Shown here: positions 40,980 to 47,745 of the stretch, piece after piece
Position numbering within the stretch: position 1 is the stretch's first letter
How the letters are laid out: every line of letters begins with the position of its first letter
NCBI GenBank assembly: GCA_965223905.1
Contig: CBDCXV010000010.1
Location: 1,088,001 to 1,152,000 of the forward strand
Direction: 5' to 3'
Length of the DNA: 64,000 bases
From: Candidatus Latescibacterota bacterium
GTDB lineage: Bacteria > Latescibacterota > UBA2968 > UBA8231
Notes under the pieces: model-generated
The model's input: only the letters and a program-made list of their open reading frames with translations
The model's database searches: none
Told to the model about the DNA's origin: nothing
Program-made: the position numbers and the translations under genes

Positions 40980-43900
40980 CTAGTAAGCCACGGCGATTGA
41001 CCGCAGCAACGTGATATCACCAGAGTCGGTCTCCAGTCTTATCTGGCAGATGTAGATGCCGGGCAGCACTTTTTGCCCGCTTGTATCGGTGCCGTCCCAT
41101 GGCATGACCGCTCGTCCACTGCTGACCATCTGCGACCTTTCGTACACCCGGCTGCCATCGAGCTGGTAGATTCGCATCTCGACCCGGCGCCTGGCACTGA
41201 TATCGAGGATGCTCATGTGGACGAGGGTTTCGTCATTGATACCGTCACTGTTGGGCGAGAACGGGTTGGGGGCAATCTCGGACACCTCGATAGCCTTGGT
41301 CTCGAGCGGCAGACCGATGGAGAGCGTATTCCCTTCGCGCAGCTTCGAGGCATCACCGGCTTCGACGTCCTGCCAGAGGGCTGTCGGGTCGGCACCTCCT
41401 GCCGCGTTGCGGACGGCGACGGCGAGGGTGGTGCCGTTCCTGAAGACGGGGGCTGCAAAGCGCACCCGTATCTCAGGGCCTGCGCCGACAACGGTGCCCT
41501 GCTTGTCCCCGGTCAGCCGTCTGTGTCCTGTCGCATCTAGCGAATCACCTTCGACGCCAAAGGGGAACTGCGGCCCGTCGCCGAGCAACACCCGGAAATA
41601 CCGTATGGGCCCCCTCTCTTCTTCCTCCAGCTCGCCCCAGATTAACTGGGGGACCTTATCTCCGACTGAGTCGATTTTCGTCAACCGAATCCTGCCGCCG
41701 GTAATGATCTGGCGAAAGTACAGGATTTTTCCCTGCTCTTCCTCTTCGAGCCCTCCATAGGCTATTGCCGAGAGCGGCAGACCTTCATGGTCCACGGGAA
41801 CCTGGTCGCCGGCAACCGTGACCGCGTTGTATGTCCTCTTGGCCTCGCTCGTGGGGAGTATGTTGACGGTTGAAGAAAATCGCACTCGGATGGAATCGGT
41901 GGAGCTTGTCACTACCTGTAGCTCCTTGCCTTCATCGTCCACGAAGATGCCATCGACCCCGGAGGGGTGGAATTCCTGTTTCGCTGCGCCGGTTTGGGAG
42001 TCGACACCCACGTCGATCCCGAGCAGGTCAACGGGTACTCCCGACGGCATGACCAGCCGCATTTCATCGAAGCCCTTGCTTCGAGATCCCACCGGCCGTT
42101 CGACGAAATGGGTCAGGATGAAGGCCTCGAAGGTGTCCACCCGCCCCGCAACCGCAACCTGCGTCGGCCACAGCTCAGCGAGAAGGTCTTCGCCCACCAA
42201 CTCCGTGAGTCCTATGTCGATGGAGCTGATCGACGCTGCCGCCTCGCGGGCTCGGCTTTTCAGCTTGACCTGGAGCTGGAGAAACTTCCTTCCCCCGGGC
42301 GAGGTGACGGGCACCCCCGGATGCTCATAGTTGCGACTCCAGGCGCTCCAGCCGACGGTGGGTACGAAGGTCGTGTCGGACGTCCGCCAGGAATTGAGCA
42401 GACGATTCCATGTGGCAAGGTCGATCTCGTGGCCGGTATTCTTGTTGTAATAGCGAATTTCCTTCCCGAGAATGTCGCCCGTGCGAGTCTGGACCTCCAG
42501 ATCAGTTCCAGACGGGGTATCGCCGACCCATGAAATGCGGGCTGGAGTGCTCCCGGAGGGAATCTCGATCAAGTCCGAGGTCAATACCGCCTCGGCGACA
42601 TGTCCTCGCGAAAAGAGCCCGTATTCAGCGATGCAGGCACTGGTGTTCGCGAGGTTTTGCAGATCCTTCGTAGTGAAGATTGTCATCTCCAGAAACCGCA
42701 ACTGCCGGGGGGGATCGTACACGTCCATGAGTTGCTTGTAATTGTTCACCGAGTTTTCTGTGCGTTCCGGAGGACTGAGGGGTTCCCAATTGAACCCTCC
42801 GGTCGCGTCGCGGCTGCCGTCTGAGCTGCGGTGTATGTATCCGTCGAAGTCCTGGCACGCGCGACCGAGAATATCCACTGCCGATACACGGACGATGTCC
42901 AGCCAGAAGGTGGCACCGAGGTCGACCGTCAAAATCCCGGCAGGGGCCCCCGGAATCGGGATTTCGTGATCGTAGAAGGTGCTGAAGTCTCCGTCGAAGG
43001 CGAGGGGCGGAGGATTCAAAACGGACGGCACGAGGAGACTGAAATTGCCGCCACCTTCTAGAAGATTCGGGCTGATGTTGTCCCCGAAACCCCACACCTC
43101 GAGGTCGGCCAGGCGGGGGCGCTCGTGACGGTAGTAGACTTTGCTCCCCTGCCGTGCCGCCGGCAATCGGTCGTATTCGTCCTTTTCAATCGGTTCCTCG
43201 ACCCCTTCCGAATCCTTGACAAAATGGAGGACATCGCCTCGATCCCCACTGTCCAGAGCGGTCCATTCCGCCTCGGAAATCTCCGTGTGCCTGCCGCCCC
43301 TGGTGTCGGTCACCACGATCCGGATGGTTTCGACCATTCTGCCCGTCCACCCTGGGGCTGCTTCCAGATTGTCCTGCAGCGGAACCGAGAAAGTCCGGAG
43401 CGCGTTGGGCTTGTCCGTACCCCCCACAACCCGCAACTGCAGCTGCAGTGCATTCTGCGTGACCGGCTCCTGATGGAAAGAAGTCAAGACCTTGAACTGA
43501 CGGAACGGATCGCCCTCCCCCTCGTCTGCGAATTTGAGAACCAGCGAATCCACGGGCACGGTCCGACCGAGGTCCACTTCGATCCACCATCGCTCGATCG
43601 GGTCATCGGAATCCGGCTCCCAGCATGTCGCCTGGATGCCGTCGAGGATATTCGCGGCTGAGTCCGGGTTCGAGCCCACGCGACTGATGCCAGGTTTGAC
43701 GAAATACTCGTAGACGGGCACTTCCCGACCCCCTTTTTTCTGCGTCAGGATCTCGCCCAGCGGGTCGCGCTTCACCGTGCTGTCGATGTTGGGGATGGCA
43801 ATGTCGTCGTTCTGGCGTCTCAGGTCCGGGAGCTTCCGACGGAATGTATTGAGATCGTCGAGGACGTTGTATCGATCCCGGAAGCGCCACGGTTTGACTC

Positions 43901-44135
43901 CCCCGGCAGTCACATCGAGGGCGTGAGTGGGCAGCTTCCAGTTGTGCCAGTGCCCTCTCCCCGCGCTGACGATCACCCGGTCTTCGCCCAGGACCAGGTG
44001 CCCTTTGTTGCTCTGGGGGTGAACGGATTGCGGGGCACCTAGAAACAAGGCCAGTCCCAAGACATGGATGAGTGAGACCGGGACACGGCTTGGCCCGGCG
44101 CCCGTGGCGAGCGCGCAGCTGACAGGCTGCCTCAT
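40980..44135 (-). CDS. Secreted protein with two discoidin-like domains and C-terminal FlgD-Ig/T9SS-type domain (paralog 2)
   Basis: AGGAGG RBS 5 nt before ATG 44135; WIEVDLG and TVDLG motifs; PNPFSPNSDGIND...WDGTD...GIYICQI...AVAY. Confidence 0.82.
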   Translation of the reverse strand: MRQPVSCALATGAGPSRVPVSLIHVLGLALFLGAPQSVHPQSNKGHLVLGEDRVIVSAGRGHWHNWKLPTHALDVTAGGVKPWRFRDRYNVLDDLNTFRRKLPDLRRQNDDIAIPNIDSTVKRDPLGEILTQKKGGREVPVYEYFVKPGISRVGSNPDSAANILDGIQATCWEPDSDDPIERWWIEVDLGRTVPVDSLVLKFADEGEGDPFRQFKVLTSFHQEPVTQNALQLQLRVVGGTDKPNALRTFSVPLQDNLEAAPGWTGRMVETIRIVVTDTRGGRHTEISEAEWTALDSGDRGDVLHFVKDSEGVEEPIEKDEYDRLPAARQGSKVYYRHERPRLADLEVWGFGDNISPNLLEGGGNFSLLVPSVLNPPPLAFDGDFSTFYDHEIPIPGAPAGILTVDLGATFWLDIVRVSAVDILGRACQDFDGYIHRSSDGSRDATGGFNWEPLSPPERTENSVNNYKQLMDVYDPPRQLRFLEMTIFTTKDLQNLANTSACIAEYGLFSRGHVAEAVLTSDLIEIPSGSTPARISWVGDTPSGTDLEVQTRTGDILGKEIRYYNKNTGHEIDLATWNRLLNSWRTSDTTFVPTVGWSAWSRNYEHPGVPVTSPGGRKFLQLQVKLKSRAREAAASISSIDIGLTELVGEDLLAELWPTQVAVAGRVDTFEAFILTHFVERPVGSRSKGFDEMRLVMPSGVPVDLLGIDVGVDSQTGAAKQEFHPSGVDGIFVDDEGKELQVVTSSTDSIRVRFSSTVNILPTSEAKRTYNAVTVAGDQVPVDHEGLPLSAIAYGGLEEEEQGKILYFRQIITGGRIRLTKIDSVGDKVPQLIWGELEEEERGPIRYFRVLLGDGPQFPFGVEGDSLDATGHRRLTGDKQGTVVGAGPEIRVRFAAPVFRNGTTLAVAVRNAAGGADPTALWQDVEAGDASKLREGNTLSIGLPLETKAIEVSEIAPNPFSPNSDGINDETLVHMSILDISARRRVEMRIYQLDGSRVYERSQMVSSGRAVMPWDGTDTSGQKVLPGIYICQIRLETDSGDITLLRSIAVAY

Positions 44136-44146
44136 GTGTGCCTCCT

Positions 44147-46072
44147 GTGCGCCGGTCACACCGGCGAGGTGTTAGAGGTGAAAGTCCTTTGTGTTGAAGG
44201 TGTAGCGAACCACGACAGCCCCGAGTCATGCGTGTGCGCCGGTAACGGCGCAGGCGAAGCGTTGGCAGGGGGGAGCGTAGGTCCGGTATGGAGCCGCGAA
44301 AGAAATGAATCCCTTTCGGGTGGCCGACCCGTTAGGAGGCGAGGGAAGGCCCCATCGGTGGGCGCGATATCGCCAGCGTCCATCGGACCCGGCGCGGTCA
44401 GAGGCCCGGCGCAGGCGCCCAGGCACCTCGTACGGGAACCGGGAGGTCCGGCGGTTGGCCCGGGGGGATGGTCCCCGGGTCCGCATCGGGAACCCGAAAG
44501 GGGCACGCCGATGACGCACGACCGCCGGAAGTCGGACAGCCCCATACAACCGGGGAACCCCGCGCACAAGGGGGGTCAGTCCGCTGCGCCCCCGGCGGAG
44601 CGGGGGGAGGGAAGGGGGCTGGGCAAGGGGAACGCGAGCGAGCACCCCAGGTCCCGGGCGCAGATCCGGACCGACCTGCACCAGGCGCTCGAACGCGTAC
44701 GACAAGCAGCGGTTCGAGACAGGGAGTTGCCGTTCACGACGCTGTGGCATCACGTCTAGACCATCGAGCGCCTCCGGGAGGCCTACCTCGGCCTCAAGCG
44801 GCAGGCCGCACCGGGGGTCGATCGCATGACGTGGAGCGAGTACGGGCAGGGGTTGGAAGCACGTCTTCAGGACCTGTCGGCCCGGCTCAAGCGCGGCGCG
44901 TATCGAGCCAAACCGGTCAAACGGACGTACATCCCGAAAGGAGACGGAGGCAGGAGACCGCTGGGCCTTGCGGCGCTGGAGGACAAGATCGTCCAGAAGG
45001 CGACCGTGGAGGTGCTCAATGCGGTCTACGAAGTCGATTTTCTGGGATTCTCGTATGGGTATCGACCGGGGCGCAGCCCGCACAGGGCGCTGGATGCGTT
45101 GGCGGTGGGGATCCAACACCGCAAAGTGAACTGGGTACTCGACGCGGACATCCGTGGGTTCTTCGACACCATCGACCACGAAGGGCTGATGAGGTTCGTC
45201 GAGCACCGTGTGCGGGACCGACGCGTGGTGCGCCACCTCAGGAAGTGGCTCAACGCGGGGGTCCTGGAAGAGGGCAGACGTATCGACGCAGAGGCAGGGA
45301 TGCCCCAGGGGGCCAGCATTTCGCCCCTGTTGGCAAACATCTACCTGCACTACGTCTTCGACCTGTGGGCGCAACGATGGCGAAAGCGACGCGCGCAAGG
45401 GGAGGTACTCCTGGTGCGCTACGCGGACGACCTCGTGGCCCGCTTTCAACACCGAGCCGACGCCGAGGCGTTCGGCGCCGACCTGGCCGCGCGGCTGGCG
45501 AGGTTTTCCCTGCAGCTGCACCCGGACAAGACGCGACGGATCGAGTTCGGGCGCTTTGCCGCGGAAAACCGGCGCCGACGGGGCGAAGGGAAACCCGAAA
45601 CGTTCGATTTTCTCGGGTTTACCCACAGCTGCGACCAGACGCGCCGGGGCAAGTTCATCGTCCTGAGACAGACGGCCAAGGAGCGGATGCGGCGAAAGCT
45701 CAAAGAGGTCAAGGCGATCCTCCAACGGCGGATGCATGACCCCGTAGCCGAAGTGGCGTGCTACCTCCGCCGCGTGATCACCGGGCACCTGAACTATATG
45801 GCGTGCCCCGGAATGGTCCGGCGCTGTGCGCGTTCATCAAGGGCATCGCCATCCATTGGTAGCGGGCCCTCAAGCGACGGAGCCACAAAACCAGGGTCAC
45901 GGGGCGGCGCATGAAGGATCTCTGGTACCAACTGTTGCCTCCTCCGCGCATCACTCACCCCTATCCCGAACAGCGCTTTGCCGTCATGACCCGAGGCAGG
46001 AGCCCAGTGCGGTAACTCCGCTCGTTGGGATCTGTGGAGGGGGTGGTCAGTAATGGTCATTCCTACTCCGAC
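44147..46072 (+). mobile_element. Group II intron (probably bacterial class E-like), inserted antisense to the operon
   Basis: 5' GTGCG at 44147; RT ORF in DIV; domain V GAGCCCAGTGCGGTAACTCCGCTCGTTGGGATC; domain VI ending CCTACTCCGAC at 46072. Confidence 0.92.
44511..46015 (+). pseudogene. ltrA: Group II intron reverse transcriptase/maturase, disrupted, no endonuclease domain
   Basis: VLDADIRGFFD, PQGASISPLLAN, VRYADD and FDFLGF motifs. TAG at 44757, a 1-nt frameshift near 45797 and TAG at 45860. Confidence 0.9.
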
Positions 46073-46092
46073 GCGGAACTGCTGACGTGGCG

Positions 46093-47745
46093 TCAACCTT
46101 CCAAAAGACTTTCGGGCAGTGCTTCGGCAAGACGGGACTCGAACACCCTGACCTCGGCGGCGTATTTGTCGCGCAGCTGTCCCAGCAACTCCTCGAAGCC
46201 TTCCTTTGCTTTTTGCACCAGCAGCAGCTGCGTGGCCTGTTGCTTCACCGTTGCATACGGTTGCTGCGTCTGTGGCTCCTTGCGCAGCACGGTGAATATC
46301 GACCATCCCCCCTTCACTTCGACGGGACCGACGATCTCCCCCTCAGGTGCTGCCATGATGGCCGCCAAGAGCCTGGGATATATGATCCTTTCGCGATTAT
46401 GAAAGTGAAATTGGCCCGTGGACTCCCGGGCCCCCTCCCTCAAGCTGCTGATCGTGAAGTCCTCCCAGGGCTCTCCCGCTACCAGCCGCCGATGCACCTC
46501 CTCCGCCTCGTCCCTGGTGGAGGACAGCACCTCCTTGATATAGACCGAAAGCTCGGTCATGAACAATTCGGGGTGGCTGTCGTAATACTCCCTCACTTGC
46601 TCCTCGGATAGGCTTACGCGTTCGGGCACGGCGGACTTCCTCATCGCTTCGAGCAGGGTTTGCTCCACGGTTTGCTCCTCGAACTCGCGGACGTCAAGTC
46701 TGTCGTACAACCCGGCCTGCCGGGCGGCCGCGTCGAACAGGGCGGGACGGAGGACCAACTCCTCGAGGGTGGAGACGGTCTTTGCGCTGTCCGCCAGCTG
46801 TTGGAAATGGTCCGGCCGCCCCATGACTTCGTAGGCCTCGGCGACCGTTATCTCGCCACCCTCGAATCCGTACAGTACGACCCCGCTCTTTTCCGCTGCA
46901 GCGGTCTCCTTGTCGCGATAGGCCTCCCGGAGTTCGGTCAATCCCTCCGGATGAAGCCTGACCCGAAAGGACTCCCTGAGCGCTTCGAAGTGCTCCCCTG
47001 CCAGCTGGGATATTTTGCCCCCCAGGAGGTGATGCCTTGCCGCAAACCGGTACTTTTCAAACGGTACCGGGCGTTCTTGTGTGAATCGGAGGACGGACCA
47101 ATCGTTCGCTACACGCTGAGGTTTTGAGACCTCACCCAGGGGCAGAGAGACGAAGAGATCCGGTGGGATGCCGACCTTCGCTATATTGTACCGGTCCACC
47201 CACGTAAAGTGCCCTCCCGCGCTGGCGGAGCGCTCCTCCACGGAATACTCACGGGCTACTTCCTCGAAAGGACGGCCCGCCTCCAGTTCACCCACGACCT
47301 TGTCGATGTCTGCTCGAGTTTTCACCACAATCGCGGTGAACCAGCGTTCGATCTGGAAGCCGTGATGGGCGGAGAATGCGCGCAGCTCCTCCTCCGGGAC
47401 CTCGATTTTCGACAGGATCTTGTTATAGCGGTAGAGGGCCCGCACCTTCGTGTCGACCACATTCCGGACCGACTCCCGCACCGTCAAGGTCGTGTCCAGA
47501 CCACGGGATTTGGCCTCCATCAGCAACAGGCGGCCGTCTATGAGGGACTGCAGGTAGTGTCGCCGTGCTGCCTCGCCTGTTTTCTCTGTGCGCAATCCAG
47601 GCGCCAAACGGCTGACGAATTCTCGCAAGGCGGAGGGCGTAATCTCGTGCGATCCCACCACGGCCACCACGTCGTCCTGCTTCGGTTGACTGCAGCAGAC
47701 CAGCAGGCTTGTGAAAACGGCTATGGCGATCTGGACGTAAACCAT
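46093..47745 (-). CDS. PpiC/parvulin-type peptidyl-prolyl isomerase lipoprotein (SurA/PrsA-like, two PPIase domains)
   Basis: Lipoprotein-like signal ending in Cys; FEEVAREYS...GG; GEVSKP; GEIVGPVEVKGGWSIF. Confidence 0.85.
   Translation of the reverse strand: MVYVQIAIAVFTSLLVCCSQPKQDDVVAVVGSHEITPSALREFVSRLAPGLRTEKTGEAARRHYLQSLIDGRLLLMEAKSRGLDTTLTVRESVRNVVDTKVRALYRYNKILSKIEVPEEELRAFSAHHGFQIERWFTAIVVKTRADIDKVVGELEAGRPFEEVAREYSVEERSASAGGHFTWVDRYNIAKVGIPPDLFVSLPLGEVSKPQRVANDWSVLRFTQERPVPFEKYRFAARHHLLGGKISQLAGEHFEALRESFRVRLHPEGLTELREAYRDKETAAAEKSGVVLYGFEGGEITVAEAYEVMGRPDHFQQLADSAKTVSTLEELVLRPALFDAAARQAGLYDRLDVREFEEQTVEQTLLEAMRKSAVPERVSLSEEQVREYYDSHPELFMTELSVYIKEVLSSTRDEAEEVHRRLVAGEPWEDFTISSLREGARESTGQFHFHNRERIIYPRLLAAIMAAPEGEIVGPVEVKGGWSIFTVLRKEPQTQQPYATVKQQATQLLLVQKAKEGFEELLGQLRDKYAAEVRVFESRLAEALPESLLEG

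Follow-up and report, generated by a model that had tools for sequence, protein, structure and literature searches.

Bacterial group II introns find their DNA targets through base pairing between exon-binding sites (EBS) of the intron RNA and intron-binding sites (IBS) of the 5' exon (Zimmerly & Semper 2015, PMC4424553; Monachello et al. 2021, PMC8643678), and three target specificities are listed in the accessible text of the former work, namely specific homing sites, intrinsic terminators and attC sites. Class IIC introns take as their sites attC or the DNA that follows an intrinsic terminator (Robart 2007; Quiroga 2008; Leon and Roy 2009-2010, cited in PMC4424553). In the CL/IIB1 intron EcI5, the critical target positions are -18, -17, -15, -14 and +5, A-14 forming an RNA-DNA pair designated IBS2a (Monachello et al. 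2021, PMC8643678). Regarding classes IIE and IIF, they are described as small IIB-like ribozymes of 450-700 nt without the intron-encoded protein (IEP), with EBS1 and EBS2 in DId, and are marked by a 5-nt loop of domain V, small size, IIB-like EBS1/EBS2 and an alpha-prime stem-loop, whereas IIC introns are without EBS2 (Nagy et al. 2013, PMC3753933). The element considered here lies in a 64,000-nt stretch of contig CBDCXV010000010.1 (the window, in which coordinates are counted unless prefixed) from a Candidatus Latescibacterota bacterium, the assembly of which (G000) comprises 7.9 Mb in 11 contigs, is 93.6% complete and has 64% G+C; it is a group II intron inserted antisense to, and directly upstream of, the Shine-Dalgarno (SD) sequence of a minus-strand gene. 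Hereafter, L-numbers designate relative loci and G016 a relative.

This intron is probably a decayed copy of an endonuclease-less, IIE/IIF-like element, the lineage of which would retrohome into the strand complementary to translation-initiation regions. At its 5' junction, the following features are involved:

44147..46072, plus strand: group II intron of 1926 nt, 5' GTGCG ... CTCCGAC 3', delimited by the empty orthologous site and by Rfam D1-D4 and D5/D6 matches
44140..44146, plus strand: IBS1 GCCTCCT, last 7 nt of the 5' exon and complement of the minus-strand ribosome-binding site (RBS) AGGAGGC, a perfect 7-nt complement of 44334-44340
44334..44340, plus strand: EBS1 AGGAGGC, in the terminal loop of hairpin 44324-44348 (GCCGAC...GGAAGGC), from Rfam placement and EBS1-IBS1 covariation
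40980..44135, minus strand: target gene of 1051 aa with F5/8 type C and CHU_C type IX secretion domains, its SD 44146-44141 and ATG 44135-44133 being the target

Direct reading of 43800-46600 gives GCCTCCT at 44140-44146 followed by GTGCG at 44147-44151, the plus strand running ..CTCATGTGTGCCTCCT up to the junction and GTGCGCC.. beyond it. The CAT at 44133-44135 is the minus-strand ATG and the minus strand accordingly reads AGGAGG-CACAC-ATG. Both intron ends (44147 and 46072) are fixed by the orthologous locus of G016, which belongs to the same family and a different genus, because its intron-free spacer, reading ..gtgcctcct immediately followed by gcggactgctgac.., abuts exactly there; BLAST of this locus against the window returns two abutting blocks, 41736-44147 and 46073-47562, and the target-gene orthologue is 85% identical across the first 300 aa. 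The conserved group II ends, GTGCG at 44147 and ..GAC at 46070-46072, are both present and coincide with the empty-site junction. EBS1 and IBS1 pair at 7/7 positions, and the 7-nt AGGAGGC/GCCTCCT match at the complement of an RBS, which a preliminary description of this DNA had pointed out, is borne out letter by letter.

The assignment of the loop as EBS1 was examined in relatives chosen by protein only, that is 80 loci with IEPs 59-69% identical to that of the window, in which the 5' ends and the homologous loop were located before deduplication to 47 genome_contigs relatives. At least five contiguous Watson-Crick pairs between the loop and its own 5' exon, counted from position -1, are found in 36/47 relatives, against 9% when exons are shuffled among introns, and the 11 others fail mostly by a single mismatch or a G-U pair. 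Since loop and 5' exon covary across relatives, the loop is EBS1. Folding of domain I, suggested beforehand as a check on the d3 loop, is by itself indecisive: for the single sequence of the EBS1 hairpin, the loop is partly paired in the minimum free energy structure and open in the centroid (z = -1.5). It is the Rfam family model and the covariation, not thermodynamics, that identify EBS1.

In the host genome, three 5' junctions of this intron occur and all three are the complement of AGGAG-N6-7-ATG. The second own copy (C10:75434) ends at intron nucleotide 1188, has the flank ..CCATGCTTCGACTCCT and the EBS1 AGGAGAC; the third (C1:1642912) is a 137-nt fragment with the flank ..TCATGAATCTTCTCCT. 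Such a context is rare among the motifs available, as an ATG lies 4-9 nt downstream of 8.2% of the 24,180 AGGAG sites of the host genome and opens at least 100 codons in 967 of them (4.0%). Because about 96% of these sites are not gene starts and no copy sits at one of them, EBS1 pairing alone, which would match about 25 times more non-RBS sites in this genome, is insufficient. The proposal that EBS1 steers insertion upstream of RBSs on the non-coding strand, sparing open reading frames (ORFs), holds for the location; steering by EBS1 alone is too weak a statement of it, and in several sublineages, that of the window included, EBS2 pairs with the start-codon complement, as detailed below. A search of 60 other genomes sampled from the same bacterial family with the 5' 324 nt of the intron yielded 16 further junctions, four of them in one repeated flank and two apparently orthologous; with the three own junctions included, 19/19 have a CTCC(T)-type end with a CAT 8-15 nt upstream of it.

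Some side observations concern the host. The SD+ATG at the second own copy opens only 24 codons, and short repeats and an AlpA/excisionase-like ORF lie nearby, this region (C10:75435-76900) being probably an integrated mobile element. The use of SD sequences is weak in the host despite a canonical 16S 3' end (..CACCTCCTTT), and only a few hundred of the 24,180 AGGAG sites stand at offsets 11-13 before the first ATG of a long ORF. A bias in replication strand at the three copies was also considered; GC skew there is weak and changes sign (-0.012 to +0.005), hence uninformative.

Contigs from metagenomes were scanned with an intron-internal pattern only (CCGAC-N4-TAGGAG-N5-GGAAGG), which retrieved at least 120 stretches. 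Among the matches listed (120), a 5' end of GTGCG type was recognised where expected in 101, the remaining 19 being contig-end cuts, variant 5' ends or unrelated pattern matches, and removal of identical flanks and of flanks below 25 nt leaves 90 distinct junctions. An opposite-strand ATG is present 9-15 nt from the insertion point in 87 of these 90 listed junctions, and one of the three exceptions has GTG. The enrichment of CCTCCT flanks beside opposite-strand starts, which the preliminary description had put forward as a check, is therefore found at every level (3/3 own junctions, 19/19 in the family including these, 87/90 metagenomic among the matches listed), and the location at SD+ATG is near-exclusive across many hosts. 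Acidobacteriota, Planctomycetota, Rokuibacteriota, Alpha- and Gammaproteobacteria are named in the record titles of relatives.

The genes concerned have little in common. Among the matches listed, 48 target ORFs reach their stop codon before the contig ends; of these, 31 have 100 codons or more, 10 have 40-99 and 7 have fewer than 40. A Pfam scan of 10 long target ORFs assigned 9 to unrelated families, namely alpha/beta hydrolase, IS110 transposase, ArdC-N, two metallo-beta-lactamase folds, short-chain dehydrogenase, glyoxalase, AAA/DUF4143 and isocitrate lyase. As the target genes are unrelated, the common feature of the sites is the translation start and not the gene. The insertions before unrelated genes in many hosts are independent, and the diversity of the flanks argues against vertically inherited sites. 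Some SD+ATG sites even lack a credible gene, with ORFs of 4, 5, 14 and 16 codons and one site before a tRNA gene, to which the 24-codon site of the host second copy can be added. With 5-6 such cases against 2-3 sites without ATG, where the chance of an ATG is about 6%, these non-genic sites argue against survival by selection alone; this is suggestive only, as some of the short ORFs could be genuine small genes or degraded ones. At L091, the 4-codon target ORF (ATG TCC TAC TTA TAA) stands about 300 nt upstream of a ribosomal protein S21-like translation and may encode a leader peptide or represent a chance SD+ATG.

The spacing between insertion point and start codon is constrained as well, and differs between two sublineages distinguished by the length of D1. 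In the long-D1 sublineage, the ATG stands at offset 10 in 6/8 sites among the matches listed; in the seventh (L162) the ATG is shifted by one nucleotide along with its insertion point, and the eighth (L125) has a 189-nt D1, a loop without AUG and offset 13. In the short-D1 sublineage (about 80 sites among the matches listed), offset 12 occurs in 29, 13 in 36, 14 in 8 and 15 in 4, with a single site at offset 10 and none at 11. The ratio of offsets 8-11 to 12-15 is thereby 4 : 77 in these listed targets, when for natural AGGAG-led first ATGs (ORFs of at least 100 codons) it is 29 : 28 in the same loci outside the target genes and 201 : 287 across the genome of the host; the spacing of the short sublineage is narrower than that of natural genes in both comparisons (Fisher 3.6e-10 and 4.2e-12, respectively). 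Besides, introns with 173-nt and 174-nt D1 forms show 12:13 offsets of 21:14 and 7:19 (Fisher p = 0.019), an effect of D1 length that is suggestive only and confounded with lineage.

A second pairing could account for the reading of the start codon in part of these elements. The candidate partners in the window, and the loops and exons of relatives, are the following:

44303..44308, plus strand: candidate EBS2 AAAUGA in the unpaired junction loop 44299-44314 (AAAGAAAUGAAUCCCU), from the Rfam consensus and the fold of 44290-44400
44132..44137, plus strand: candidate IBS2 TCATGT, holding the complement of ATG 44135-44133, from partial pairing with EBS2 and covariation in relatives
L218: EBS2 loop CCAUGA, exon UCAUGG
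L219: EBS2 loop CCAUG, exon CAUGG
L217: EBS2 loop GAAUGAA, exon UUCAUUC
L018 and L019: EBS2 loop AAUGCCC, exon GGGCAU and GGGCAUU, respectively
L013: EBS2 loop GCAUG, exon CAUGC
L027: EBS2 loop CAUGA, exon UCAUG
long-D1 metagenomic sublineage: EBS2 loop (U)CCAUG, exon CAUGG
L162: EBS2 loop AUAUG, exon CAUAC, a compensatory change

In the window, AUGA (44305-44308) pairs contiguously with TCAT (44132-44135), and 5/6 positions of AAAUGA are paired overall. The same junction loop holds EBS2 in sister lineages, where it can face another sequence, as in the ..CCATTACA lineage with GAUG opposite YAUC at -13 to -10. The homologous loop and the exon covary in L217, L218 and L219. Over the four positions flanking AUG/CAU in 18 intron-exon pairs, 34/72 are Watson-Crick against 25.3 in permutations, a value reached by 186 of 10,000 permutations, and the position adjoining the codon pairs in 13/18 via three pair types. 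Covariation between EBS2 and exon has real but modest support. As the short sublineage has neither AUG in the loop nor loop-exon complementarity beyond that of shuffles, something besides the EBS2 loop would measure the distance to the ATG. An AUGAAAG hairpin near the intron 5' end was considered as a reader of the start codon and rejected, being also conserved in lineages that do not target SD sequences.

The mechanism that can be proposed is as follows. The excised intron RNA, together with its reverse transcriptase, would reverse-splice into DNA where the pairings can form: EBS1, of AGGAG type and itself an SD sequence, would pair with CTCCT in the DNA, and EBS2 (..AUGA) of the sublineage to which the window copy belongs would pair with the start-codon complement ..TCAT. 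The intron would land antisense and directly 5' of the SD of the opposite-strand gene. Both pairings are envisaged as acting during DNA integration by reverse splicing, a role presumed by analogy with studied introns. Synthesis of the cDNA would presumably be primed by host replication, as for other endonuclease-minus introns, and the short sublineage, with no AUG in its loop, may read the start codon through some other contact.

Other explanations have to be weighed against such retrohoming. Safe harbours could result from selection only, EBS1 alone directing insertion to any CTCCT, intragenic copies being purged and the AUG of the loop being incidental; as most intergenic AGGAG motifs are real RBSs, the surviving copies would then adjoin start codons. 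This would suit the abundant short sublineage, in which the loop is devoid of AUG, EBS2 pairing goes undetected and the ATG offsets (12-15) fall within the natural range, as well as the second own copy and L227, which pair only via CAU, and the general occurrence of bacterial group II introns outside housekeeping genes, as stated in the accessible text of Zimmerly & Semper (2015, PMC4424553). It is nonetheless an unlikely account, for it leaves unexplained that offsets 8-11, about half of natural AGGAG-led starts, make up 4/81 of the short-sublineage targets among the matches listed, that a single fixed offset recurs in 6/8 listed sites of the long sublineage, that EBS2 flanks covary with the exon and that SD+ATG sites without a real gene outnumber those without ATG. 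Neither is the separation of a gene from its upstream DNA obviously harmless, the insertion in the window splitting a 31-nt same-strand spacer.

That a single intron came to lie beside an RBS by chance, the EBS1 match merely reflecting this position, could be entertained in a genome of 64% G+C where CCTCCT-like strings are common (AGGAGG occurs 8,190 times), but the recurrence in the three sets of junctions given above (3/3, 19/19 and, among the matches listed, 87/90), against a background of 4%, refutes it and leaves it practically no probability. A domesticated regulator, in which the SD-like EBS1 would sequester the anti-SD of the 16S rRNA, or an antisense RNA would run across the target start, beyond any target choice, is very improbable too. 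The host 16S end (..CACCTCCTTT) is complementary to EBS1, as had been remarked beforehand, and transcripts including the 5' exon would be antisense to the start of the target gene; such complementarity, however, holds for any SD-like sequence and no function was found for it. EBS1 varies along with each copy's own exon, as expected of a targeting element, intron copies decay, the orthologous site in G016 is empty, and a scan for sigma-70-like promoters, which covers no other promoter types, detected none in 43900-46400.

Retrohoming of the lineage into the complement of translation-initiation regions remains the preferred reading, against which a number of points nevertheless weigh. Selection against intragenic insertions must contribute to the distribution, and its share is not separable here. 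In the window, EBS2 and IBS2 form only 4 contiguous pairs, the second own copy and L227 pair through CAU only (3 pairs), and the permutation support for EBS2 (p about 0.02) comes from rows related to each other. The commonest metagenomic sublineage, the short one, has no AUG in its EBS2 loop, and its loop-exon complementarity (3.51) hardly exceeds that of shuffled pairs (3.44), 62/300 shuffles being as high. EBS2-IBS2 pairing is dispensable for self-splicing of IIE/IIF introns in vitro (Nagy et al. 2013, PMC3753933), from which the same authors propose that EBS2 serves homing in this class. The Rfam score of D5/D6 is under the gathering threshold (34.2 vs 40). The mobility of the lineage is deduced from sequence and, with no intact IEP in the assembly, the element may no longer be mobile in its host.

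The phylogeny of the IEPs delimits the trait. FastTree was applied to 131 IEP fragments, that of the window and 130 stop-free ones with at least 300 aligned residues from genome_contigs and metagenome loci. One 66-row clade (local support 94) contains all 56 SD-type rows and its 59-row sister clade none, the SD label requiring 4 changes on the tree vs 41 in shuffles; the branch of the window IEP is long (0.34). Most SD-type rows were retrieved via EBS1, and the informative rows are therefore the 19 genome_contigs loci of that clade, 8 of which are clearly SD-type, 2 SD-like (AGGUG, CAGAGG), 6 directed to other targets and 3 unresolved. Among more distant relatives, some insert directly after a hairpin and others at ..ATCGCCATTACA. 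Homologues were anticipated to share the EBS1 and its context, and the nearest ones do share the AGGAG type, within one IEP clade, whereas distant ones carry other EBS1 sequences and other targets; SD targeting is thus a trait of the lineage and not of the whole family.

Two sister lineages illustrate these other targets. The first, with EBS1 CAGAC, is multi-copy within single Acidobacteriota assemblies (L034, L049, L051, L052, L058-L060, L066-L072; 5' junction near locus position 2403) and inserts exactly where a hairpin, GCAGACCTC-N7-GAGGTCTG, ends on its 3' side, its sites having no T-run and IBS1 lying within the stem. It thereby behaves like a IIC intron, although the other members of its IEP clade possess an EBS2. 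The other, with EBS1 UGUAAUG and EBS2 GAUG (L026, L032, L033, L038, L043, L044, L047, L048, L053, L073, L074; 5' junction near 2406), occupies many similar sites, ..(T)GGCGAAAAATCGCCATTACA before the junction and TCTCA.. after it, including a short hairpin, and its target may be a repeated host element. The host itself harbours three group II introns of other lineages, at C10:1987722-1987954, C11:1963194-1963450 and C11:95981-96239 (L003, L005 and L006; RF02005 at 94.9, 48.9 and 37.4 bits, respectively), the targets of which are not SD-like; in L006, EBS1 CGUAUAA stands opposite exon UUAUAUG.

The remainder of the intron and its surroundings comprise the following:

44181..44407, plus strand: core of domain I, Rfam RF02005 (group-II-D1D4-6), 163.5 bits for a gathering score of 49, E 2.6e-47, full model 1-225
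44512..46015, plus strand: decayed intron-encoded reverse transcriptase/maturase, from a three-frame translation, with its stop codon inside D5
46000..46032, plus strand: domain V of 33 nt with a 5-nt apical loop, GCGG-UAACU-CCGC, from the RF00029 alignment and the fold
46035..46072, plus strand: domain VI with bulged A at 46065 and 3' end ..GAC, from the RF00029 alignment at 34.2 bits
46073..46092, plus strand: 3' exon, being the 20 nt left on this side of the 31-nt spacer that existed before insertion, from reading and the G016 empty site
46093..47745, minus strand: upstream neighbour, a SurA-like peptidyl-prolyl isomerase, now parted from the target gene by the antisense intron

The D5/D6 region was aligned to RF00029 over 45998-46072 in a permissive scan (gathering score 40, E 2.2e-4 in a 2.5-kb search). 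The stem-loop 44352-44384 comes after the EBS1 hairpin in the Rfam alignment, and the intron 3' end is kept as ..CUACYSCGAY in relatives. The third base pair of the catalytic-triad helix of D5 is G-A (GAGC...GAUC) where G-U is usual, and it is the same in all relatives printed. The IEP is disrupted by an in-frame TAG at 44757-44759, a frameshift near 45797 and a second TAG near 45860; the remnant still matches RVT_1 (1.5e-36) and stops about 70 aa past the frameshift. An intact relative is encoded in L016 (492 aa; NCBIfam TIGR04416 at 342 bits, cut-off 300) and, since RVT_1 is its sole Pfam match, it is without an endonuclease domain. No intact IEP of the lineage was found in the host assembly, 93.6% complete as it is. 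At a contig end (G000:C7:20676-21490), the 3' 815 nt of a fourth copy are preserved, 99.6% identical and followed by another 3' exon beginning with T. It has the same frameshift and second TAG as the window copy, the first TAG lying outside this portion; with these lesions in common, the defective element would have moved at least once, or been copied by recombination, or received help in trans.

Before insertion, 31 nt separated the two minus-strand genes. The insertion keeps SD, spacer, ATG and ORF of the target gene intact, and separates it from its upstream DNA by a 1.9 kb antisense intron. Being antisense, the intron cannot be spliced out of the target-gene transcript. Regarding a hairpin upstream of the insertion point as in IIC introns, the three own flanks allow short ones, yet these stand at differing distances and within coding DNA, and a terminator scan detected no terminator-like site in 43900-46400; this candidate was discarded.

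The RNA is filed as IIE/IIF-like, not IIC, because of the presence of EBS2, the 5-nt D5 loop and the small size, a label that spans E, F or a sister group, the IEP being compared only with solved reverse transcriptases. Without its ORF, the ribozyme measures about 440 nt (44147-44511 plus 46000-46072), at the lower edge of the 450-700 nt IIE/IIF range. In the 12 relatives printed, D5 has 33 nt with five nucleotides between GCGG and CCGC; in a wider set, the folded D5 loop has 4 nt in 25, 5 nt in 16, 3 nt in 10 and 6 nt in 3. Against sequences in the PDB, the IEP is nearest to IIC enzymes (GsI-IIC, 141 bits), followed by IIB (113 bits) and IIA (112 bits); assignment by solved reverse transcriptases was set aside.

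As for novelty, a full-text literature search, which did not cover supplements, returned no paper on group II insertion at ribosome-binding sites or start codons, and a word search of the accessible text of Toro & Martinez-Abarca (2013) gave nothing on targets. This is an ordinary class of retroelement with a generic, abundant target for which no description was found. It is conceivable, though for the time being doubtful, that it represents a fourth kind of targeting, in which the translation-initiation region is read as a homing site in mirror image, through an EBS1 that is an SD sequence and an EBS2 that is a start codon, the commonest sublineage sensing the start codon at a fixed distance without visible RNA pairing. 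If so, reading of the SD and start-codon complement would add a fourth specificity to the three listed, with a target in front of many genes in most bacteria, which fits the spread across phyla and the at least 120 metagenome stretches; sensing in the commonest sublineage would then need a protein contact or a tie with translation initiation, e.g. EBS1 engaging the anti-SD of the 30S subunit. It would also be a natural case of an EBS2 seen to take part in choosing the target, in a class that can do without it when self-splicing in vitro. A simple, testable rule for the landing sites of such elements would follow, possibly a starting point for insertion tools aimed at gene starts, and one may ask what price the host pays when 1.9 kb of antisense DNA part a gene from the signals upstream of it.

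Compared with known systems, this lineage resembles IIE/IIF introns by its small ribozyme, its IIB-like domain I with EBS1 and EBS2 in DId, its 5-nt DV loop, its IEP without endonuclease and its 5' GUGCG and 3' AY ends; one studied IIE/IIF intron differs by its IBS sequences, and no SD or start-codon target is mentioned in the accessible text (Nagy et al. 2013, PMC3753933). With IIC introns, it shares the lack of endonuclease and the use of a generic genome-wide motif in place of a single homing site. Introns in attC are also antisense to neighbouring genes. The motif is here linear (SD and start codon) and read with EBS2, unlike the DNA stem-loop and short IBS1, without EBS2, of IIC; the parallel with IIC safe harbours that had been drawn at the outset consequently stands as an analogy only, given an RNA with the EBS2 and 5-nt D5 loop of IIE/IIF. 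Finally, EBS1/IBS1 and EBS2/IBS2 pairing and distal 5' exon contacts around -13 to -18 are reminiscent of what the accessible literature describes for RmInt1 (class D) and EcI5, as is, for RmInt1, an IEP without endonuclease domain. Unlike these two introns, which use one specific homing site of 20-35 bp, often inside another mobile element, this lineage has as its site two near-universal signals of translation start, available many times per genome and in front of unrelated genes.

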